Shown here piece after piece: positions 40,688-51,088 of a stretch of 64,000 nucleotides of DNA; position 1 is the stretch's first letter, and every line of letters starts with the position of its first letter. A program made the position numbers and the translations under genes. The notes beneath the pieces were generated by a model. The model worked only from the letters and a program-made list of their open reading frames with translations, was not told the origin of the DNA and did no database searches. The stretch is from Desulfosudaceae bacterium. Lineage in GTDB: Bacteria > Desulfobacterota > Desulfobacteria > Desulfobacterales > Desulfosudaceae. The DNA lies in assembly GCA_963674745.2 (NCBI GenBank), contig CAXXDV010000001.1:1600001-1664000 (forward strand). Reading direction: 5' to 3'.

Positions 40688-43600
40688 CTACCGTGCCTCC
40701 GCAGAAATTCCGGCTTCCGGAACAGACATTTGAGTCGATTTCTTTTTTCCGAAAAGCTTCACCACCGTTACATAAAAAAGCGGGATAAAGAAAATCGCCA
40801 GAAAGGTTGCCGTCAGCATACCACCCAGAACACCGGTGCCGATGGCGGTTTGCGCGCCGGCACCGGCGCCGGTGGCCATCGCCAGCGGCAGGACACCGAA
40901 ACCAAAGGCCATGGATGTCATGACTATGGGCCGTAGTCTCAATCTGGCGCCTTCCAGTGTCGCTTCCACCAGCCCCATACCGGATTTGACCCGATGCATG
41001 GCGAACTGGACGATCAGGATGGCGTTTTTGGTGGTCAACCCCAGAACCGTCAGCATACCGATTTGAAAATAGACATCATTGGGAAAGCCCCTGATCATGG
41101 ATGCCGCTACCCCGCCGATGACCCCCAGCGGCAGGGCCAGCATGATGGAGATAGGGACGGTCCAGCTTTCATACAGGGCCGCCAGGCAGAGAAAAATGAC
41201 GATCATGGAAAAAGCGTACAGCAAACCGGTCTGGGACTTGGCCATACGCTCCTGGTAGGAAATACCGCTCCAGTCATAACCGATGTCTTTAGGCAGCCTG
41301 GAAACAAAGTCCTCCATAATGGCCATGGCCTCACCGGTGCTTCTGCCCGGGGCGGCTTCACCCTGGATGTTCATGGATGGAAAGGAGTTGAATCGTTCCA
41401 GTCGCGGGGAGCCGTAGCTCCAGGACCCGGATGCAAAGGCCGTAAACGGCGTCATCTCTCCGGCTGTATTGCGCACATAAAGACGGTCGATGTCCGAGGG
41501 CAGCATGCGTTTGGGGGCGTCGGCCTGGACAAAAACTTTTTTGACCCGGCCGCCCTGGATAAAATCATTGACATAAGATCCGCCAAAGGCGGCGGAAATG
41601 GTATGGTTTATGGCGTCGATGGGCACGCCCAGCACACCGGCCCGCTCCCAGTCCACGTTCACCCGGTATTCGGGTACATCGGCCATACCGTTGGGCCGGA
41701 CCCGCGTCAGCCGTTTGTCGGCCCATGCCATGCCCAGCAGCTGGTTGCGGGCGTTCATCAGGGCGGCATGACCCAGACCGCCGCGGTCTTGAAGCTGGAA
41801 ATCAAAGCCATTGGCCATGCCCAGTTCCACCACCGCCGGCGGGGCAAACGCAAAAATCCGGGCATTCCGGATTTGCGCAAAGCGGCCCATGGCCCGCTCA
41901 ACCAGGGCTTTGACTTTGAGTTCCGGGCGATCCCGCAAATCCCAGTCCTTTAACCGGATAAATCCCAGTCCCATGTTCTGGGCCACTCCTGCAAAACCTC
42001 GCCCCACCAGGGTAAGGGCAGAGTCTACGGCCTCTTTTTCATCCTCCATCAGGTAGGCGCGAATTTCGTCCATCACCTTTTCGGTCTGCTCCATCGTTGA
42101 ACCGGTGGGCAGTTCGGCCTGAATCATCATCATGCCCTGGTCCTCGTCCGGCAGGTAGGCCGTGGGCATTTTCCCGAACAGGTAAAACAGCCCGCCGACA
42201 ATCAGCAGATAAATGATGAAAAAACTGATTTTATGGTTCAGGATGCCGCCGACCATGTTCCGGTAACCATCCCGGATCCGGTTAAAATTCCGGTTAAACC
42301 ATCTGAAAAAGGGCTGGAACATCCGGAACCCGACATCCGAAACAGCATGCCCTTTGCCCACGGGTTTGAGCAGGGAGGCGCACAGCACCGGCGTCAGAAT
42401 CAGCGCCACCAGCACCGAAAGCAGCATGGCCGAAATCAGGGTAACGGAAAACTGGCGGTAGATCACACCGGTAGAACCCCCGAAAAACGCCATAGGACCG
42501 AATACCGCCGCCAGCACCAGTCCGATACCGATCAGGGCGCTGGTAATTTCTTCCATGGATTTTGCGGTGGCCTCTCGGGGGCCAAGCCCTTCGTCCTGCA
42601 TGACCCGCTCCACGTTTTCCACCACCACGATGGCGTCATCCACCAGCAGGCCGATGGCCAGTACCATGGCGAACATGGTCAGCATATTGATGGAGTAATT
42701 AAAAAGTCCCAGAACGGCAAAAGTGCCCAAAATAACCACCGGCACCGCCAGGGTGGGGATCAGGGTGGCCCGGAAATTCCCCAGGAAAAGAAACATCACC
42801 AGAAACACCAGGATGATGGCTTCAAAAAGGGTCTTGACCACTTCCTCGATGGCCACCCGCACAAAAGGGGTGGTGTCATAAGGATAGATAACCTTCATGC
42901 CGGGGGGAAAGTAATTGGACAGCTCAACCATTTTTTCCCGGACCGCGTCCGCTGTTTTTAAAGCATTGGCGCCGGCGGCCAGGCGAACGGCCATGGCTGC
43001 CGTGGGGTTTCCGTTATTTAACGCGTCGGTATCGTACCGCTCGGCCCCAAGCTCGGTCCATCCCACGTCTTTTACACGGATAATGGAACCGTCGGGGCGG
43101 ATGCGGATGGGAACTTCGGCAAATTCTTCAGGTGTTTCCAGCATATTCTGGACGATGATGGTGGTGTTCAGGCGCTGGCCCTCAACCGCGGGCAAACCGC
43201 CGAACTGGCCGGCCGAAACCTCGGCATTATAACGCTTCAGGCTGGAGATAACATCGGAGATCGTGAGTTGGTAATCGGTGAGTTTGTCCGGATCCAGCCA
43301 GATGCGCATGGCATACTGAGTACCGAAGCTGTTTACCTCTCCCACCCCGGGGACCCGGGCCAGAACTGTTTCCAGCTTGGACTGGGCGTAATCCCGCAGG
43401 TCGTCTCCGTTCATGCTGCCGTCTTCCGAGATCAGGCCCACGATCATCAGCCAGTTACGGGTGGACTTGCTTACTTTGACACCCTGGCGCTGGATCACAT
43501 CCGGCAGGCTGGACATGGCCAGATTCAGTTTGTTTTGCACCTCGGTCCAGGCTTGGTCCGGGTCGGTGCCCGGCGCAAAGGTGAGTTCCAGGCGCCCGGC

Positions 43601-43864
43601 ACCCGAAGAATCGCTGACGGCGGTCATATACAAAAGCTTGTCAAAACCCGTCATTTTTTGTTCGATGATCTGGACGACGCTGTTTTCTACCGTTTCCGCT
43701 GAAGCGCCGGGGTAAAAGGCGTCAATCGCAATGGTCGGCGGGGCGATCGGCGGGTACTGCGAGATCGGCAGGTTGTAAATGGCCAATGCCCCCACGATCA
43801 TCATGATAATGGCGATTACCCAGGCAAAAACCGGACGGTCGAGAAAAAATTTTGAAAGCATCAC
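40688..43864 (-). CDS. RND efflux permease (AcrB/MexB family)
   Basis: FLDRPVFAWVIAI, LPISQYP, GLLVDDAIVVVENVER, KNAILIV, RLRPIVMTS. Confidence 0.97.
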   Translation of the reverse strand: MMLSKFFLDRPVFAWVIAIIMMIVGALAIYNLPISQYPPIAPPTIAIDAFYPGASAETVENSVVQIIEQKMTGFDKLLYMTAVSDSSGAGRLELTFAPGTDPDQAWTEVQNKLNLAMSSLPDVIQRQGVKVSKSTRNWLMIVGLISEDGSMNGDDLRDYAQSKLETVLARVPGVGEVNSFGTQYAMRIWLDPDKLTDYQLTISDVISSLKRYNAEVSAGQFGGLPAVEGQRLNTTIIVQNMLETPEEFAEVPIRIRPDGSIIRVKDVGWTELGAERYDTDALNNGNPTAAMAVRLAAGANALKTADAVREKMVELSNYFPPGMKVIYPYDTTPFVRVAIEEVVKTLFEAIILVFLVMFLFLGNFRATLIPTLAVPVVILGTFAVLGLFNYSINMLTMFAMVLAIGLLVDDAIVVVENVERVMQDEGLGPREATAKSMEEITSALIGIGLVLAAVFGPMAFFGGSTGVIYRQFSVTLISAMLLSVLVALILTPVLCASLLKPVGKGHAVSDVGFRMFQPFFRWFNRNFNRIRDGYRNMVGGILNHKISFFIIYLLIVGGLFYLFGKMPTAYLPDEDQGMMMIQAELPTGSTMEQTEKVMDEIRAYLMEDEKEAVDSALTLVGRGFAGVAQNMGLGFIRLKDWDLRDRPELKVKALVERAMGRFAQIRNARIFAFAPPAVVELGMANGFDFQLQDRGGLGHAALMNARNQLLGMAWADKRLTRVRPNGMADVPEYRVNVDWERAGVLGVPIDAINHTISAAFGGSYVNDFIQGGRVKKVFVQADAPKRMLPSDIDRLYVRNTAGEMTPFTAFASGSWSYGSPRLERFNSFPSMNIQGEAAPGRSTGEAMAIMEDFVSRLPKDIGYDWSGISYQERMAKSQTGLLYAFSMIVIFLCLAALYESWTVPISIMLALPLGVIGGVAASMIRGFPNDVYFQIGMLTVLGLTTKNAILIVQFAMHRVKSGMGLVEATLEGARLRLRPIVMTSMAFGFGVLPLAMATGAGAGAQTAIGTGVLGGMLTATFLAIFFIPLFYVTVVKLFGKKKSTQMSVPEAGISAEAR

Positions 43865-45063
43865 TCGCCTCCGTCTTCGGCTTTTTCAGGTGCCGGCGCG
43901 GCGGACCCCATGGGAACGGCCTTGACCTGAGCCCCCGGTCTGAGATTCAGCCGGCCTTCCACAATGACCCGGTCTCCGGCGGACAGGCCATCCATGACCA
44001 GCCACCGGTCTCCCAGCGCCCGATCCAGTTTCAGGAGCCGTTGTTGAACCGTGCCGGTTTCATCCACCACCAGGGCGAATGCTTCGCCCTTGGGGTTGCG
44101 GCTGACGCCTTCCTGGGGCGCCAGAATGGCGTCGGTAAGAAGGCCTTCTGAGATCACCGCCCGGGCGTACATGCCGGGCAAAAGAAGTAAGTCCGGGTTC
44201 GGCACCACGATGCGCATGGTGTAGGAACCGGTGGCCGGGTCGACGGTCACATCCCGGAATTGCAGCTTGCCTTCAATCGGATAGGGGGTTCCGTCTTCCA
44301 GAATTATGGCTGCCTTTTTGGCGTCCTGGCTGTCCGGGCTGATGCGGCCGGTTTCCAGCCCCCGTTTTAGACGAAGCAGTTCGGCCGAAGACTGGGTGAC
44401 ATCCACATAAATCGGATCCAGCTGCTGGATGGTCGCCAGGGCCATGGGCTGATAAGCCGTTACCATTGCCCCGTCGGTCACGCTGGATTTGCCGATACGG
44501 CCGGAAATCGGTGCCGTGACCCGGGTGTACGCCAGGTTGATACGAGCGGTTTCCACCACCGCCTGCCAATACTGAATCTGGGCCAGCGCCTTGCTAACGG
44601 CCGCGGCCGCGTCATCATAGTCCTGCTGGCTGACAGCCTTGTCGTCAAGCAGTTCCCGGTATCGTTCGGCACGGGCCTTTGTAGACGGCAGGTTGGCTTC
44701 GGCTACGGCCAGAGACGCCAGGGCGGAATCCAGGGCCGCCTGAAACTGGGCCGGGTCGATCTGATAAAGTGGCTGGCCGGCTTTGACCTCCGAGCCTTCC
44801 CGGAACTGTCGTTTGAGTATGATTCCGCTTACCTGTGGTCTGACTTCCGCTATCAGGTAAGCGGATGTGCGGCCCGGCAGTTCACTGGTCAATTCAACCT
44901 TTTGCGAGGCGATGGTCTCGACACCCACTTCCGGAACACGTGCGGCCGCCATATCCTGTTTTTCGCTCTCTTTCTGGCAGCCGGTCAGCCCTGATAAAGC
45001 GGCCAGAATCACCAGAGGCCATATCCACTTGAAGGGTTTAAGGTCATTTTTATTAAAGCGCAT
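43861..45063 (-). CDS. RND efflux periplasmic adaptor (AcrA/MexA family)
   Basis: Lipobox LTGC, ELPGRT, EVRPQVSGII, APISGRIG; GGGAG RBS before ATG 45063. Confidence 0.95.
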   Translation of the reverse strand: MRFNKNDLKPFKWIWPLVILAALSGLTGCQKESEKQDMAAARVPEVGVETIASQKVELTSELPGRTSAYLIAEVRPQVSGIILKRQFREGSEVKAGQPLYQIDPAQFQAALDSALASLAVAEANLPSTKARAERYRELLDDKAVSQQDYDDAAAAVSKALAQIQYWQAVVETARINLAYTRVTAPISGRIGKSSVTDGAMVTAYQPMALATIQQLDPIYVDVTQSSAELLRLKRGLETGRISPDSQDAKKAAIILEDGTPYPIEGKLQFRDVTVDPATGSYTMRIVVPNPDLLLLPGMYARAVISEGLLTDAILAPQEGVSRNPKGEAFALVVDETGTVQQRLLKLDRALGDRWLVMDGLSAGDRVIVEGRLNLRPGAQVKAVPMGSAAPAPEKAEDGGE

Positions 45064-45114
45064 CAAAATCTCCCACATTACGATAATAAATGTTGTCCAT
45101 GTCAGTCGCATGAT

Positions 45115-45747
45115 TTATTGCGGGCTGAGCAGGGGGTTTAAAAATATATCCAGAATAACGTCCGGGTCCTCGGGAAAAGGGTTGCGTTCAGGTGACTCAA
45201 GCCAGCGCAGCAGAAAGCCGTCAATAACGCTGTCCAGGGCCACGGCCAGGGCATGCGGGTCGGCAATTTTTTGAAACAGACCGCTTTTTATCCCGTTTCC
45301 AAAAACAAGTGCCAATTGCTCCAGAAATGCGTCCATCCGCTTTCGTAAGGCGTCATCCAGACCGGCCTTGGAATTGTAGCTCGCCCCTTTGCTTTCGGCC
45401 AGAAAGAGGCGGACAAAGGGCAGATTGCTCCGGAACATATCGACGTGGAGACGAACAAAATTTCTTAGTTTTTCGATTTCGTCACCGGGCCCTTCCAAAG
45501 CATCCAGAAAAGCCGCTTCAAAACGGTCGCACTGCTCAATCACCAGGTCTCTATACAGACATTCCTTGTTCTGGAAAAACTTATACAGGGTGCCGATGGC
45601 AAATTCCGAAGCCTCGGCGATTTCCTGCATGGATACACTGTGGTATCCTTTTTCAGAAAAAAGACTCAGTGCGGCTTCGAGTATCTCCTGTCGCTGCCTC
45701 AGTTTTTCTCTTTCCCGTCTTGAAGGCTTTTCGGTTTTCGTTGTCAC
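45115..45747 (-). CDS. TetR/AcrR-family transcriptional regulator
   Basis: ILEAALSLFSEKGY..SMQEIA....GTLYKFF.NKE; probable GTG start 45747 after GGAGAGG. Confidence 0.92.
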   Translation of the reverse strand: MTTKTEKPSRREREKLRQRQEILEAALSLFSEKGYHSVSMQEIAEASEFAIGTLYKFFQNKECLYRDLVIEQCDRFEAAFLDALEGPGDEIEKLRNFVRLHVDMFRSNLPFVRLFLAESKGASYNSKAGLDDALRKRMDAFLEQLALVFGNGIKSGLFQKIADPHALAVALDSVIDGFLLRWLESPERNPFPEDPDVILDIFLNPLLSPQ

Positions 45748-45790
45748 AGGGCCTCTCCGGCCGGCGCCTTGGATGCTGTCCGGCTGGATG

Positions 45791-45853
45791 TGAATATTGG
45801 ATTCAAAAAATGAATAAAAATTCAAATTATAAAATCGTTCTTCATAAAGTCAA
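45791..45853 (-). promoter_or_regulatory. Sigma70 promoter with two TGAAT..ATTCA operator-like inverted repeats
   Basis: Minus strand TTGACT(45853-45848)-16 nt-TATAAT(45831-45826); IRs at 45791-45805 and 45811-45824. Confidence 0.65.
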
Positions 45854-46058: not shown

Positions 46059-46087
46059 TTGACGATTGTTAAAGTTAAACGTATAAT
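46059..46087 (+). promoter_or_regulatory. Sigma70 promoter of the candidate selenoprotein gene
   Basis: TTGACG-17 nt-TATAAT; leader hairpin GATTACATA..TATGTAATC at 46126-46151. Confidence 0.7.
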
Positions 46088-46225
46088 ATAAAAATTTGTT
46101 GTTCCGGCTTTGGGCAGGCCTTCAGGATTACATAAATGTTTGTATGTAATCGGATGTTGACATCATGAGTGTAGCAAGGTTTAATCCTCGCCGGTGCCAA
46201 GTTACTTAACAGAGGAGGAAAATAC

Positions 46226-47245
46226 ATGTCTGTAAAACGTTTTCTGCAAACCCATCTGAAACATTTCGCCTGTTACACGATTCTGCTTCTGGCATGCGCC
46301 TTGTTGGTTATGCCGGACTCTGCAAAGGCTGCTTGAGGAAACCCTAGGCTGACCGTGAATGTCAGCCCGGCCGAAGGCGGTGATGTTACCTCACCGCAAT
46401 TCGATACTCCTGATGGATATCCGGTTAATTTTACTTGCAGTGTTGATTATGTCCTTACAGCAGAACCAGAGGCCGCTTACGTGTTTAAAAATTGGGTCAT
46501 TAATGGTATGACGTCAACCGTGAACCCCTTATCAATAACTGTTGCCGACGGTGAAAAATCCGTAACAGCGGTTTTCCGAATTCCGGGAACCGAAAATAAC
46601 CCGCCGACGGCGGATGCGGGGGCTGATCAAACCGTCATCGAAAAGCAAGAGGTAACACTGGATGGCTCTGGTTCTTTTGATCCGGATGGTAAAATTAGCA
46701 GCTATCTCTGGGAGCAGATCGGCGGCGCCATTGTTAGTTTGTCCAATGACAAAGCTGTTTCGCCGAAGTTTACAGCCATGGAAATCCTCTCTGATACAGA
46801 AACCGAGGTTCTGACATTTAGATTGACGGTTGAAGATTTTGACGGCGCAACCGATATTGATACGGTTACGATTACTGTCAGAGACTCCGGCAATGATCCG
46901 CCGGTGGCCGATGCCGGGGAGGACCAGACGGTTATTCAGCGATATGTCGTGACGCTGGATGGGTCCGGGTCGACAGACCCAAACGGAGTAGATGATATCG
47001 CCAGTTATTTTTGGGAGCAGACAGAAGGTATTGCCGTCGCCTTGTCCGATACGACTGCGGTCAAACCGACCTTTACGGCTCCGGATGTTTTTGATTCCGA
47101 CCAACCGGAAAAATTGGTGTTTATGCTGACAGTGGGGGATACCGCAGACGACACTTCGGAGGATTATGTTACCATAACCGTCGAGCGCGGTCCTATCGGC
47201 GGTGACAGCAGCAACGCCGGATGTTTCGTTGGAACCATGAGGTGA
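46226..47245 (+). CDS. Secreted InlB-B-repeat-like plus 2x PKD-like protein, candidate selenoprotein (in-frame TGA at codon 37)
   Basis: GAGGAGG RBS, ATG 46226, signal peptide ..MPDSAKAA, TGA 46334-46336, then GNPRLTVNVSP in frame with ORF 46355-47245; PTADAG.DQTV..LDGSGS.DPDG repeats; ends GCFVGTMR. Confidence 0.8.
46334..46370 (+). promoter_or_regulatory. Putative bacterial SECIS element
   Basis: TGA-GGAAACCCTA-GGCTGAC-CGTGAAT-GTCAGCC: perfect 7-bp stem beginning 11 nt after UGA, G at loop position 2. Confidence 0.65.
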
Positions 47246-47572
47246 GGATTTTATCTTTTTTTGCCGTTTATGGCCTGACTTCAGGGATATCTCCGGCCTG
47301 TGACGGGATCGTCACGGGCCGGTCAATCCTTGTGGCCTTTTTTCACAAACCGGTTTCGGCCGGGATGCCCTTCCTCGGTTTTTTTCGCGGTCTGATACGC
47401 GTCCATTATTTTTTTTCAAAAAAAACACAATGGTATTTGCAATCCTGGGTAACGTGCGATAGAATTTTTTGACACACATCTCCTGCCGGGCCGGTAATTT
47501 TTTGCCTGCCGCCAGAGGTGGAAAAAGGGGAGCGCAACACAACGAAAGACGTCGGCAAGAGGAGGGAAAGAT

Positions 47573-48592
47573 ATGGGCCATAAACCTTTTTTGATAAGCA
47601 GCCTGGGGTTTTTTCAATGCGTTTTTGTGCTTCTGGCCGGACTTGTTTTGATGCTGCCCGGCCATGCTGAAGCAGCTTGTCAATGTGAACTTCACGTCAG
47701 GGTCAACCCTGCAGGAAGCGGAAATATTACCTCCCCCCAGTTTCCGACCAACCCGACCAGATATCCGTCAGTTTTTGTCTCAAGTAACCAGTACAGGCTA
47801 ACAGCTGTTCCGCAGGAAGGGTATGTGTTCGTAAATTGGGAGGTGAATTACACGACCAACCCCAACAACCCGATTAATGTATCAATAGAAACTGAAGGGC
47901 AAAAAACCGTTACGGCTTTTTTTCAAAGAGCTGAGGAAATTCCGAACCTTCCTCCAACCGCTGACGCCGGTCAGGACCAATCCGTCATTGAAGGTGAGTT
48001 GGCAACACTGGACGGCTCCGGTTCTGTTGATCCGGATGACGGTATAAGCAGTTATTTCTGGCAGCAGATTGCAGGCGTTGACGTGACGCTTTCCGACCCA
48101 TCAGCCATAAACCCCGGGTTCACGGCTCCGCCGGTATCGTCGAATCCGTTAACATTAAAATTTCGCCTGACCGTTGAAGACAATAGCGGTGCGGTTGATA
48201 TTGATGATGTTACCGTTACCGCTTTAGAGGCAGACAATGTGCCGCCGACTGCTGATGCGGGTGACAATCAGACCGTTACCCAGAGAAGCATGGTAACATT
48301 GGATGCTTCCGGTTCTTTTGATGCCAATGGAAACGATGATATAAAAACGTATTTTTGGGAACAAACCATGGGCACCAGGGTGCCCCTGTCAGACAACACG
48401 GCCGTTAAGCCGACTTTCAGGGCGCCTGAAATATCCTTTGGGGACACCCTGTCACTGGAATTTCGGCTGACATTGGAGGATGCTCTCGGCACTAAGGCTC
48501 AAGACAGGGTCCAGGTCGTTGTCGTTCCAGACGCCGTCAGTGGCGGCAGTGGAGGCAGTTCGGGTTGTTTTATTTCCAGTGTCGTCCATTAA
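47573..48592 (+). CDS. Secreted InlB-B-repeat-like plus 2x PKD-like protein, Cys paralogue of 46226-47245
   Basis: GGAGG RBS; signal peptide ..HAEAA then CQC; LTAVPQEGYVFVNW; two PTADAG.DQ.V..LD.SGS.D units; ends GGSSGCFISSVVH; also 339 aa. Confidence 0.9.
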   Translation: MGHKPFLISSLGFFQCVFVLLAGLVLMLPGHAEAACQCELHVRVNPAGSGNITSPQFPTNPTRYPSVFVSSNQYRLTAVPQEGYVFVNWEVNYTTNPNNPINVSIETEGQKTVTAFFQRAEEIPNLPPTADAGQDQSVIEGELATLDGSGSVDPDDGISSYFWQQIAGVDVTLSDPSAINPGFTAPPVSSNPLTLKFRLTVEDNSGAVDIDDVTVTALEADNVPPTADAGDNQTVTQRSMVTLDASGSFDANGNDDIKTYFWEQTMGTRVPLSDNTAVKPTFRAPEISFGDTLSLEFRLTLEDALGTKAQDRVQVVVVPDAVSGGSGGSSGCFISSVVH

Positions 48593-48735
48593 GACAACGG
48601 GTTACCCCGTATCACCGGCTAATTAATGTCGACCTGTTTGTAAAATAGCCGCTCGATTTATCCCAAAAACGGAAGTAAAAGGGGACGGTTAATCAAAGCT
48701 GTCTGAATGGCTGTTTTTTCAAAAGATTTTTGTCC

Positions 48736-50085
48736 ATGAAAAAAACCGTAAAAACCCGCCCGGCCATAATAGCGCGCAGCAAAAGTTTTATTGAAACAGA
48801 GATCTGGAGACTCCGCCTCAAGGATATAGAGGGGAAAAAAGGGGCGTCGGTCAAAAGTTTAAGAATTCTGCTCATCGCGATAAAAGAGTTTATTGCTGAT
48901 CAATGCGCTTTGCGTGCGTCCGCACTGACGTTATATTCGCTTCTTTCCATTGTTCCGGTTATCGCTATGGCCTTTGCCATCGCCAAGGGCTTCGGGGTCC
49001 AGAATATGCTGGAAAAAGAACTGCTGGGGCAATTTGCCGGACAGGAGGAGGTGCTTAACAAAATAATCGAATATGCCCGCACGCTTCTGGAGCAGACCAA
49101 GGGCGGATTGTTGGCCGGCATCGGTGCCGCCACCCTGCTATGGTCGGTGCTCAAAGTAATGACCAATATCGAAAAATGTTTTAATGTGGTCTGGGCCAAC
49201 ACCACCCCCCGCGCGCTGGGAAAAAAGTTCAGTGACTATCTCTCCATTATTCTGGTAACCCCGCTGTTGCTGATTATGTCCGGCAGTGCCACGGTTCTGG
49301 TCGTCAGCGAAGTCACTACGATAACGGAAAAAATCGCGGTTTTGGGCTTTTTCAGCCCGATTATAATGTTGTTTTTAAAATTACTGCCTTACGTTGTTAT
49401 CTGGGTATTATTCACTTTTGTCTACGTGTTTATGCCCAACACCAAAGTTGCGGTCAAATCCGGCTTGATCGGTGGTATTATCGCCGGCACGGCCTTCAAA
49501 TTATTGCAATGGCTTTATATCTATTTTCAGGTCGGGGTGTCCCGCTACAATGCCATATACGGCAGTTTTGCCGCCCTGCCGCTGTTTTTGATCTGGTTGC
49601 AGCTGAGCTGGCTGATCGTCCTGTTCGGGGCCGAGCTGTCGTTCGCCCATCAGAATGTGGATGAATACGAACTGGAACCGGACAGCAGGAAAATCAGTGG
49701 CTTCCTAAGGAAGGTGATCAGTATGTCTGTTGCTCACCTTCTGGTTAAAACATTTCAGCAAGGCGAGAAACCGTTGAGCGGGGATCAGGTATCGGAAATC
49801 CTGGATATTCCGATCCGTCTGATAAAAGAGGTCCTTGATGCGCTTTCCGAAAGCGGCTTGATCACCCGAACAATTGATGAACAAGGAAAGGCCATCACCT
49901 GGCAACCGGCCAGGGACATCAACACGATCACCGTTGCCTCGGTTATTGAGACGCTGGAAAAGAGCGGCGTAAATGAGCTGCCGGTAGAACAAACACGGGA
50001 ATTCCGTCTTCTTTCTGATACCGTAACGGCCTGTTATGATGCCATTAGAACATCTCCGTCCAACATGGCGTTAAAAGACATCTGA
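48736..50085 (+). CDS. YihY/virulence factor BrkB family membrane protein with C-terminal winged-helix-like extension
   Basis: RASALTLYSLLSIVP, IE..FN.VW, Y.FMPN, YNAIYGSFAALP.FLIWL. Confidence 0.92.
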   Translation: MKKTVKTRPAIIARSKSFIETEIWRLRLKDIEGKKGASVKSLRILLIAIKEFIADQCALRASALTLYSLLSIVPVIAMAFAIAKGFGVQNMLEKELLGQFAGQEEVLNKIIEYARTLLEQTKGGLLAGIGAATLLWSVLKVMTNIEKCFNVVWANTTPRALGKKFSDYLSIILVTPLLLIMSGSATVLVVSEVTTITEKIAVLGFFSPIIMLFLKLLPYVVIWVLFTFVYVFMPNTKVAVKSGLIGGIIAGTAFKLLQWLYIYFQVGVSRYNAIYGSFAALPLFLIWLQLSWLIVLFGAELSFAHQNVDEYELEPDSRKISGFLRKVISMSVAHLLVKTFQQGEKPLSGDQVSEILDIPIRLIKEVLDALSESGLITRTIDEQGKAITWQPARDINTITVASVIETLEKSGVNELPVEQTREFRLLSDTVTACYDAIRTSPSNMALKDI

Positions 50086-50201
50086 AAAAACACTCCCCCC
50101 TCTTGACACCGTTTTCCTGATTATTATTATTTTTAATAAAGAAACCGGTGAACTTATAAGGCACCATTATAATAACTAAAAAGGAAAAAGGGGGTATTAC
50201 C

Positions 50202-50645
50202 ATGATTACTTTTCCGACTTTTGATCTGCGAAGTTCATTTGATGAACTTGACAGCGTGCGCCGGAGATTGGACACCCTTCTCGGCGCTGTTAAGCAGGGC
50301 GGCTACCGCCTTGCAGGAAGCGGCGTGTTTCCGTTAATCAATCTTACCGAAGATAAAGACAATTATTACTTAAGAGCGGAACTGCCCGGTGTTAAGGCGG
50401 ATGACCTGGATATTCATACCACACAGAATGATATCGTTCTTGCCGGTGAACGCAAACAGGCGGAACAGGGGGAAAACGTCCGCTTTCATCGGCGTGAACG
50501 GGATATGGGGCAGTTCTCCCGGGTTGTTAAACTGCCCGGTGAGATTGATAATGATAAAATTGAGGCCCAACTGGCTTTGGGTGTGTTGACCGTTACCATA
50601 CCCAAATCCGAGGTTGCCAAGCCCCGTCAGATTCAAATCAAATAA
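50202..50645 (+). CDS. Hsp20/alpha-crystallin small heat shock protein
   Basis: P.INL.E, AELPGV, GER, RRER..G.FSR...LP, GVLTVTIPK. Confidence 0.95.
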   Translation: MITFPTFDLRSSFDELDSVRRRLDTLLGAVKQGGYRLAGSGVFPLINLTEDKDNYYLRAELPGVKADDLDIHTTQNDIVLAGERKQAEQGENVRFHRRERDMGQFSRVVKLPGEIDNDKIEAQLALGVLTVTIPKSEVAKPRQIQIK

Positions 50646-50680
50646 ATTTTTGATTTTTAAAAGGAAAGGAGGCGGTTATC

Positions 50681-51088
50681 ATGTCAGTTGATAAAAGTAA
50701 GGAAATGCAGGTCAAGGAAAAGCAGGAAGTCGCTTCTCCGGAGCAGACAACACCGGGCCCTTACTACACGCCGACAGTGGATATTTTCGAAACCGATAGT
50801 GCCATAACCCTGCTGGCGGATTTACCCGGGGTAAAACCCGAGGGCCTGACAATTGATCTTCGGGATAACGTGTTGACCCTGACCGGGGAAATTGCGCCGT
50901 TTGAAAACGCGAATGAGGAAGACCTGATCATTGAATATGAGGTGGGCAAATATTTTCGCCAGTTTACGATATCCAATATCATTGATCAGGAGAAAATCCA
51001 GGCGAATCTGAATGACGGTGTTTTAAACCTGATGCTGCCCAAAGCGGATAAAGCCCAACCCAGAAAAATAGCTGTAAAAAGTGCATAA
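50681..51088 (+). CDS. Hsp20/alpha-crystallin small heat shock protein
   Basis: P.VDIFE, ADLPGV, YFRQF, DGVL.L.LPK. Confidence 0.95.
   Translation: MSVDKSKEMQVKEKQEVASPEQTTPGPYYTPTVDIFETDSAITLLADLPGVKPEGLTIDLRDNVLTLTGEIAPFENANEEDLIIEYEVGKYFRQFTISNIIDQEKIQANLNDGVLNLMLPKADKAQPRKIAVKSA

Follow-up and report, generated by a model that had tools for sequence, protein, structure and literature searches.

The 64,000-nucleotide stretch of Desulfosudaceae DNA analysed here (hereafter the window) carries, on the plus strand at 46226–47245, a gene with an in-frame UGA as its 37th codon. From ATG 46226 the gene encodes a signal peptide (MSVKRFLQTHLKHFACYTILLLACALLVMPDSAKAA) that directly precedes the UGA, and the frame then continues as GNPRLTVNVSP... 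to the stop at 47243–47245. The read-through product has 339 amino acids (aa), which is also the length of the product of the adjoining paralogue at 47573–48592, and Cys36 of this paralogue aligns with position 37 (AEAA-C vs. AKAA-U, where U is selenocysteine, Sec). A 7-bp stem (GGCTGAC/GTCAGCC) with the loop CGTGAAT, which has G at position 2, begins at the 11th base past the TGA. The initial annotation had proposed each of these elements, together with a promoter and a ribosome-binding site (RBS), and all of them were found at the positions it gave, including the Cys of the paralogue. As judged from the sequence comparisons described below, UGA37 is very probably read as Sec, and 46226–47245 can be regarded with good confidence as one gene for an exported selenoprotein.

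The annotated start of the gene, GTG 46355, is an invariant Val codon within the hairpin loop. It has no RBS and its product has no signal peptide; given its position in the hairpin loop, it is most likely a spurious start. RBS-like purine runs were also observed 5' of the ATG in the paralogues and relatives. Behind the signal peptide, the N-terminal domain (N-domain) matched the InlB B-repeat family PF18998 with 33.8 bits (cut-off, 23.6), and the two PKD domains matched PF22352 with 124.9 bits in two stretches, above the gathering score. The features of the locus are listed in Table 1.

Table 1. Positions of the features at the putative selenoprotein locus in the window.
Feature	Position	Strand	Basis or remark
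Promoter-like TTGACG-17-TATAAT	46059–46087	+	Consensus scan, 11/12 positions; consensus match only
Shine-Dalgarno-like GAGGAGG	46212–46218	+	7 nt 5' of ATG 46226; from sequence
Signal peptide, 36 codons	46226–46333	+	K/R n-region, hydrophobic core, PDSAKAA c-region
UGA as predicted Sec, U37	46334–46336	+	Mature residue +1 or +2; conservation, aligned Cys, Sec machinery
SECIS-like hairpin	46347–46367	+	Stem 46347–46353/46361–46367, loop CGUGAAU 46354–46360; codes LTVNVS
InlB-B-repeat-like N-domain, residues 43–118	46352–46579	+	Pfam PF18998
Cys71 (NFTCSV), sole N-domain Cys	46436–46438	+	Putative selenylsulfide partner of U37
PKD domain 1, residues 131–218	46616–46879	+	Pfam PF22352, E = 1.3e-36 over two stretches
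PKD domain 2, about residues 224–318	46895–47179	+	Second PF22352 stretch; limits approximate, from repeat PPxADAGxDQTV...TITV
C-terminal tail GCFVGTMR, Cys333	47219–47242	+	Conserved G-C-F-[IV] motif
True stop TGA	47243–47245	+	No hairpin after it
Terminator-like hairpin and T run	47321–47345	+	Consensus scan
Cys-form paralogue, 339 aa	47573–48592	+	C36-Q-C38 opposite U-G-N; no hairpin

Conservation of the UGA codon and its hairpin

The genome contains five TGA genes of this family, namely the window gene and four paralogues, and one Cys paralogue. One of the four is a full-length PKD form on contig 3, and the other three form a tandem array on contig 1, where they have the N-terminal module alone in common with the window gene and continue with DUF5719-like repeats. 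All four encode a signal peptide, the TGA and GGPxLTVxVSP, and have an identical hairpin. A second species of the genus carries five TGA forms and one Cys form. To cover the order, 401 of its genomes were searched with a profile of the N-terminal module, with stops translated through. Outside the genus, 26 matches span the end of the signal peptide, and 19 of these have one TGA. The 19 genes come from 13 genomes in seven other families of the order, and all of them encode a signal peptide, A or G, U, and then LTVxVSP after 1–6 residues. The TGA is thus kept in four paralogues, five congener genes and 19 genes of seven other families, and the concern attached to the initial annotation that it might be specific to this strain did not hold. 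Among the matches without TGA, those inspected (L051, L061, L065, L073, L053, and L254) have neither Cys nor Sec at the U position, and a further one, L072, is a true lipoprotein with an LLGC lipobox. In one family represented by 58 genomes, matches were found in 23 genomes, with TGA in 36 of 40 matches.

In addition, a scan for the hairpin pattern in one genome per species returned at least 118 stretches. Among the matches listed, 26 have an in-frame TGA no more than 30 nt upstream; 23 of these are family members and three are chance matches in high-GC genomes. The listed carriers belong to Desulfobacteraceae, Desulfococcaceae, Desulfosalsimonadaceae, Desulfococcus, Syntrophaceae, Dehalococcoidales, and delta/Proteobacteria metagenome-assembled genomes (MAGs). 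A stricter pattern applied to metagenomes gave 22 stretches, all 22 with a signal-peptide-like open reading frame (ORF) in frame upstream. In a metagenome contig about 92% identical, the TGA and hairpin are unchanged and a 3-nt insertion just upstream is in frame. A contig of a relative from an RNA library, which is not proof of transcription and carries no information on translation, also has the TGA, 11 nt and the hairpin. In total, 57 distinct Sec forms were collected; 48 were found by the protein profile with the hairpin ignored, and these span eight families of the order.

A sample of 401 genomes at the level of the phylum gave no Sec form besides this genome at E ≤ 1e-8; with this strict threshold and only about 19 genomes from the order, the result indicates rarity outside the order, not absence. 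Searching a protein database with residues 1–125 returned solely the window's own truncated 254-aa product. A profile search of representative proteins gave 8,779 matches, mostly giant multi-repeat B-repeat proteins, and in the five of these that were inspected the signal peptide is followed by neither Cys nor Sec. Cys forms were found twice, as the window paralogue at 47573–48592 and as its orthologue in the congener (G002).

The hairpin motif occurs in exactly five copies in the 5.5-Mb genome, each 15 nt past the in-frame TGA of these paralogues. RNA folding, which had been proposed with the initial annotation as a check, gave an energy for the hairpin that was only modestly unusual (z = −1.85). 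It is the genome-wide comparison of the motif, not the folding energy alone, that places the hairpin above chance. Across the family, the loop starts with CGUG in all 57 Sec forms, and the spacer between the UGA and a 6-bp stem is 11 nt in 38 forms, 14 nt in 11, 17 nt in seven, and 20 nt in one. The stem is GCUGAC/GUCAGC in 42 of the 48 profile-found genes. Among the remaining six, two genes of one genus have UUUGAC/GUCAAA with two compensatory pairs, one has ACUGAC/GUCAGU with a compensatory change, one has a G.U wobble as its outer pair, and two have a mismatched outer pair (U.U in L068 and G.G in L231).

Constraint on the RNA was assessed at synonymous sites in the 27 profile-found members with the peptide LTVxVSP. 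The stem codons are CTG, ACC, GTG, and GTC in all 27, and Ser is AGC in 26, whereas the loop codon x is free and the codon of the next Pro varies (CCG 10, CCA 4, CCC 6, and CCT 7). In the first strands of 21 non-Sec B-repeats, CTG was used in 7/21, ACC in 2/9 Thr, GTG in 7/21, and GTC in 8/21, and the stem could be formed in none of the 21. Both Cys paralogues also lack the hairpin. The hairpin thus goes with the TGA, being absent from Cys forms and non-Sec homologues, and the check on its conservation proposed with the initial annotation came out in favour of the Sec reading. The contrast at synonymous sites is a strong argument that the stem is constrained at the RNA level. No Rfam match was found over 46200–46500.

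The genome contains selA, selB (369.8 bits, above the cut-off), selD, and tRNA-Sec (selC), the Sec machinery whose presence had been named as a check. Moreover, selD itself has an in-frame TGA in the usual GAG-U-xxK context (contig 1, 326061–326981), and three fdhA (formate dehydrogenase alpha) homologues have one in-frame TGA each (C3:1453771-1456773, C3:2043432-2044169, and C2:53621-54403). All 11 carrier genomes tested for selA have the gene, among them three Dehalococcoidales and two Syntrophaceae MAGs. The selenocysteine insertion sequence (SECIS) elements of the fdhA genes in this genome have a 6-bp stem and share the loop GGUCU, 12–15 nt past the UGA. SelB is known from E. coli to contact the GU bases of the loop; since the fdhA loop has GU at positions 2–3, the resident SelB would already read a loop of this kind. 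In the proposed mechanism, SelB and Sec-tRNA(Sec) would decode UGA37 as directed by the downstream hairpin, which is the step with comparative support, and the hairpin would double as the coding sequence of the first β-strand, LTVNVS.

Other readings of the UGA were weighed against these data. The codon could be read through as a residue other than Sec, such as Trp or Cys, by a near-cognate tRNA with stimulation by the hairpin, as hairpins can stimulate read-through in general. This is very unlikely, because the position of the hairpin (11–20 nt) and its loop GU are those of bacterial SECIS elements, including that of the resident fdhA, selA accompanies the family in all 11 carrier genomes tested, and non-TGA paralogues have Cys, the usual replacement for Sec. 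A two-cistron arrangement, in which a 36-codon ORF ends at the TGA, the body is translated from GTG 46355 and the hairpin is regulatory (translational coupling or attenuation), would agree with the choice of this GTG in the hairpin loop by gene callers, with a protein database that holds truncated products only, and with the use of UGA as the normal stop of the window gene as well. However, the upstream ORF is always in frame and shaped like a signal peptide with an AxA-type end (56/57; 22/22 in metagenomes), no Shine-Dalgarno sequence precedes GTG 46355, and a body of extracytoplasmic type would be left without an export signal. Furthermore, Cys replaces the stop in two paralogues so that the frame runs straight through, and the upstream 3-nt insertion keeps the frame; we therefore regard two cistrons as scarcely credible. 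Finally, if the gene encoded an ordinary surface protein in which a Cys codon had been altered by a sequencing error or nonsense mutation, a single-base change (TGT/TGC to TGA) would suffice, and an intact Cys paralogue lies next to it. This reading is refuted by the presence of the same TGA in 57 distinct genes from many genera, whose frames are intact for up to 1,600 codons downstream, and in independent metagenome contigs.

The N-terminal module and the proteins that carry it

In 56 of the 57 members, the −1/−3 rule for signal peptidase I would put U at +1 or +2. Of the 57, 52 have A or G just before U and 40 have G just after it. For the window protein, export by the general secretory (Sec) pathway and a signal peptidase I cut at AKA|A would leave selenocysteine at position +2 of the mature chain, which fits the rule, and the putative mature N-terminal peptide would be (A)U-GNPRLTVNVSPAEGGDVTSPQFDTPDGYPVNFTCSVDY.... 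A formylglycine-type motif (CxPxR) was also considered and was rejected, as conservation downstream of U does not follow this pattern.

The mature N-domain was modelled with AlphaFold2 from an alignment of 31 rows; the model is confident, with a pLDDT of 91, and all-β. Foldseek gave no match to this model in the PDB at E ≤ 0.001, and the InlB B-repeat 2y5p was a weak match at rank 20 (E = 0.26; TM scores, 0.43/0.52).

The number of Cys residues differs between Sec and non-Sec domains. Among 50 distinct Sec-form N-domains, 47 have one Cys besides U, and one each has none, two, and three, so that the total of U and Cys is even in 48 of 50. The 68 distinct non-Sec B-repeat domains from the same searches have two Cys in 52 cases, four in four, one in eight, and none in four, and their Cys pair forms a local C-x3-4-C loop. 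The sole Cys of the Sec forms occupies alternative sites, namely 'TC[SF]' (as Cys71), an insertion, or the residue just before the last strand; Sec domains without another Cys have one beside U as UC, UxC, or UxxC. Every metagenome copy of sufficient length for the count has exactly one Cys. This parity of the Cys counts is read as a sign of a Sec–Cys selenylsulfide pair, in which the U37 selenol would pair with Cys71 and the selenylsulfide would replace the Cys–Cys pair of ordinary B-repeats. The initial annotation had suggested pairing with the Cys in NFTCSV; the support found for it is indirect and comes from the Cys-count parity.

At the other end, G-C-F-[IV] and a few further residues terminate the window protein, the adjoining paralogue (48566–48589) and many relatives (L195–L203). 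Two relatives of 1,600 aa (L192 and L193) continue beyond GGGCFV with a hydrophobic helix and RR, an arrangement that resembles a C-terminal sorting signal. The GCF tail may represent an anchoring signal that is truncated or has not been described, and would then hold the protein at the cell surface. With the C-terminus as the anchor, the Sec domain would form the distal tip of a PKD stalk. No NCBIfam model matched the tail. Its pattern, (G/S)n-G-C-F-[IV]-x3-7-stop, also resembles the start of the 'PCFIATAAYG' motif in P0098.

In the relatives, the Sec module invariably occupies the first position, and the bodies behind it differ, comprising PKD arrays, fn3-like repeats, SdrD-B-like domains, and DUF5719-like repeats. 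One to four copies of the sulfurtransferase-type domain rhodanese (PF00581) were present in six of ten relatives scanned, usually directly behind the Sec module.

Several features of these proteins were observed in addition. Of the Sec-fused rhodanese domains inspected (L194, L195, L196, L197, L198, L202, L199, and L192), most have Asp or Gly where the CxxGxR[ST] loop presumably has its catalytic Cys. They also have a new conserved Cys in GH[IM]xCAxN, at a place where ordinary rhodaneses presumably have GHIPGA. The rhodanese of L199 has a standard GHIPG and retains the catalytic CRSGNRS loop. The long Sec forms (the tandem L024, L031, and L027 at C1:2630829-2634744; L200, L201, and L204) contain three or four copies of an uncharacterised β-rich repeat with the motif Y-[FY]-P-H-[IV]...W-[WQ]-T-[GE]-I...N-T and a weak match to Pfam DUF5719, and they end with ...GFQLNGSSD..LDGLPAL. 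L245 (G833:C1:~298134-298517, minus strand) is a TGA form in which U follows not a signal peptide but a Cys-rich stretch (...DCSCEMC-U-GDSYALTVKV). It may be an internal Sec B-repeat domain that follows a Cys-rich linker, similar to the DCxCExC behind the rhodanese in L196 and L202.

Possible roles of the predicted selenocysteine

At the cell surface, an Se–S centre might capture or transfer sulfur or selenium species such as polysulfide or S0. Alternatively, it might serve as an Se–S cross-link that withstands sulfidic, reducing surroundings; the redox potentials of selenylsulfides lie below those of disulfides. Taken jointly, a role in sulfur or selenium chemistry or as a cross-link has about an even chance of being correct. 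A more specific form, in which the surface Sec is a nucleophile for polysulfide, S0, or selenium, or provides the first natural reduction-proof selenylsulfide cross-link in millimolar sulfide, is put forward tentatively. Under this form, the Sec may also supply the missing catalytic residue to adjacent rhodaneses that have Asp in place of the active-site Cys. If true, either version would amount to a non-enzymatic or trans-acting role of selenium on the cell surface of sulfate-reducing bacteria and of their syntrophic neighbours.

Several observations weigh against the reading as an exported selenoprotein with a Sec–Cys centre. Covariation in the stem is thin, as four of the six core pairs are invariant and double changes are confined to two lineages, and the two members with a mismatched outer pair (L068 and L231) depart from the stem. 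Because the stem codes for conserved residues, part of its conservation is at the protein level. Cys forms, two among about 60, are fewer than is usual for selenoprotein families, with little alternation of Sec and Cys. Regarding the pairing, the Sec form L153 lacks any Cys and the Cys form L019 lacks a partner Cys in the domain. Regarding the function, Pfam gave no rhodanese domain for the window protein itself, and the gene neighbourhoods compared at three loci of this genome have no gene in common and offer no operon clue; the functional reading consequently draws on domain fusions in other genera.

A different use of the same residues would be a soft-metal site (Ni, Zn, Cu, Hg, or Cd), formed by Sec, the free amine and the partner Cys, for scavenging in sulfidic water. 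The placement of Sec at +1 or +2 beside the free amino terminus and the presence of exactly one Cys partner are compatible with such a site, several catalogued selenoproteins bind metal via CU/UxxC motifs (PMC13188914 Table 1), and, as a weak indication, one paralogue lies 0.2–6 kb from a znuABC-fur cluster. However, no His/Asp/Cys-rich motifs were observed nearby, the other loci have no metal-transport neighbourhood, and the recurrent fusion partner is rhodanese and not a metal-binding domain, which makes the metal site rather unlikely. Functions other than sulfur/selenium chemistry, cross-linking or metal binding take up the remaining probability.

A lipoprotein-like anchor, with a lipidated Sec in place of the lipobox Cys, was also considered in view of the A or G before U in 52/57 members and of the true LLGC lipobox in the non-Sec homologue L072. 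The lipobox consensus is [LVI][ASTVI][GAS]C, and the residues before U do not match it: K stands at position −3 in the window protein, relatives frequently have D, E, or K there, and a charged or aromatic residue is common at position −2. Moreover, the AxA-type site is in many cases located one residue ahead of U, and the conserved C-terminal tail is already anchor-like. The lipoprotein reading was rejected because of the missing lipobox, and lipidation of the Sec appears quite improbable.

Comparison with known selenoproteins

As an exported selenoprotein family, the present proteins do not appear in the catalogue of PMC13188914, a 2026 review that contains 119 prokaryotic selenoprotein families or subfamilies and no PKD, B-repeat, or Ig-like exported family. 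This agrees with the statement in the initial annotation that no described family has such an architecture. NF049953 (hypothetical selenoprotein DG, GUxG) had no match in this genome despite its six family copies, and PF07610 (DUF1573 selenoprotein, UGC) had none in Pfam scans of 18 family proteins. Twelve N-terminal modules compared with NCBIfam matched no selenoprotein model at E ≤ 1 and gave weak repeat matches only. A full-text literature search found no paper that joins selenocysteine, selenoprotein, and PKD domain. In the accessible parts of the deep-Sep paper, the Haft and Gwadz preprint, the BSepDB paper, and Kivenson et al., nothing similar was described; the BSepDB family table, which lay outside the comparison, could bear on novelty.

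With regard to decoding, the gene resembles other SelB/SECIS genes (fdhF/FdhA and the fdhA and selD of this genome) in the in-frame UGA, the GU-loop hairpin 11–20 nt downstream, the machinery and the aligned Cys. It differs from the fdhF/FdhA prototype in that its SECIS is family-specific and nearly invariant (GCUGAC-CGUGNNN-GUCAGC), its product is not an oxidoreductase of a catalogued family, and Sec forms far outnumber Cys forms. These comparisons strongly support the view that the mechanism would be ordinary SelB/SECIS decoding and that the novelty would lie in the protein family, the placement of Sec, and the kind of carrier protein.

With regard to the product, the exported thioredoxin-fold selenoproteins (PF13098, DsbA/DsbG-like, UxxC; PMC13188914) likewise have Sec near the mature start and a partner Cys, and a few members here share UC, UxC, or UxxC with them. 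In contrast to these, the present family has a B-repeat β domain with Sec at +1 or +2, and its partner Cys usually lies 30–75 residues away in a variable place. Ordinary InlB B-repeats (PF18998/TIGR02543) have the same first strand, L-T/S-V-x-V-x-P, and the same end of the last strand, V-T-A-x-F, but they carry C-x3-4-C and no UGA or hairpin, whereas the Sec form invariably comes first behind the signal peptide. A tie between Se/S chemistry and an extracytoplasmic rhodanese is shared with the rhodanese-like selenoproteins (forms 1–5, PMC13188914) and with periplasmic polysulfide-sulfur transferases. Unlike in the rhodanese-like selenoproteins, the Sec of the relatives lies in the domain that precedes the rhodanese and not in its active-site loop. 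The MccSep/ExtKL multihaem selenoprotein of sulfur respiration, as far as the accessible part of PMC13510729 describes it, is also extracytoplasmic, occurs in anaerobes and is concerned with insoluble or polymeric sulfur, a role that is only presumed for the present family; on the same basis, the present proteins differ from it in having no haem motifs and an unrelated fold.

The family would add an uncatalogued group of selenoproteins, with five per genome here, dozens across Desulfobacterales and outliers in Syntrophaceae and Dehalococcoidales, and the selenoproteome counts of these groups would increase. Since genes called from the GTG inside the SECIS loop lose both the signal peptide and the Sec, a systematic annotation error would be corrected at the same time. 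The position of Sec at the extreme N-terminus of an exported, adhesin-like, non-thioredoxin protein would be unusual, as would the predominance of Sec over Cys forms, the fusion of a SECIS to the codons of a conserved β-strand and the shuffling of a Sec module ahead of varied surface-protein bodies, often beside rhodanese. These proteins would also offer a testable handle on the extracellular role of selenium in sulfidic anaerobic habitats.

In the window, the putative selenoprotein gene has unremarkable neighbours. On one side these are genes for an AcrB-type RND pump, a membrane-fusion protein and a TetR regulator (minus strand, 40688–45825). The downstream region at 48730–51088 contains two Hsp20 genes and an ORF that resembles a BrkB/YihY-Rrf2 fusion.

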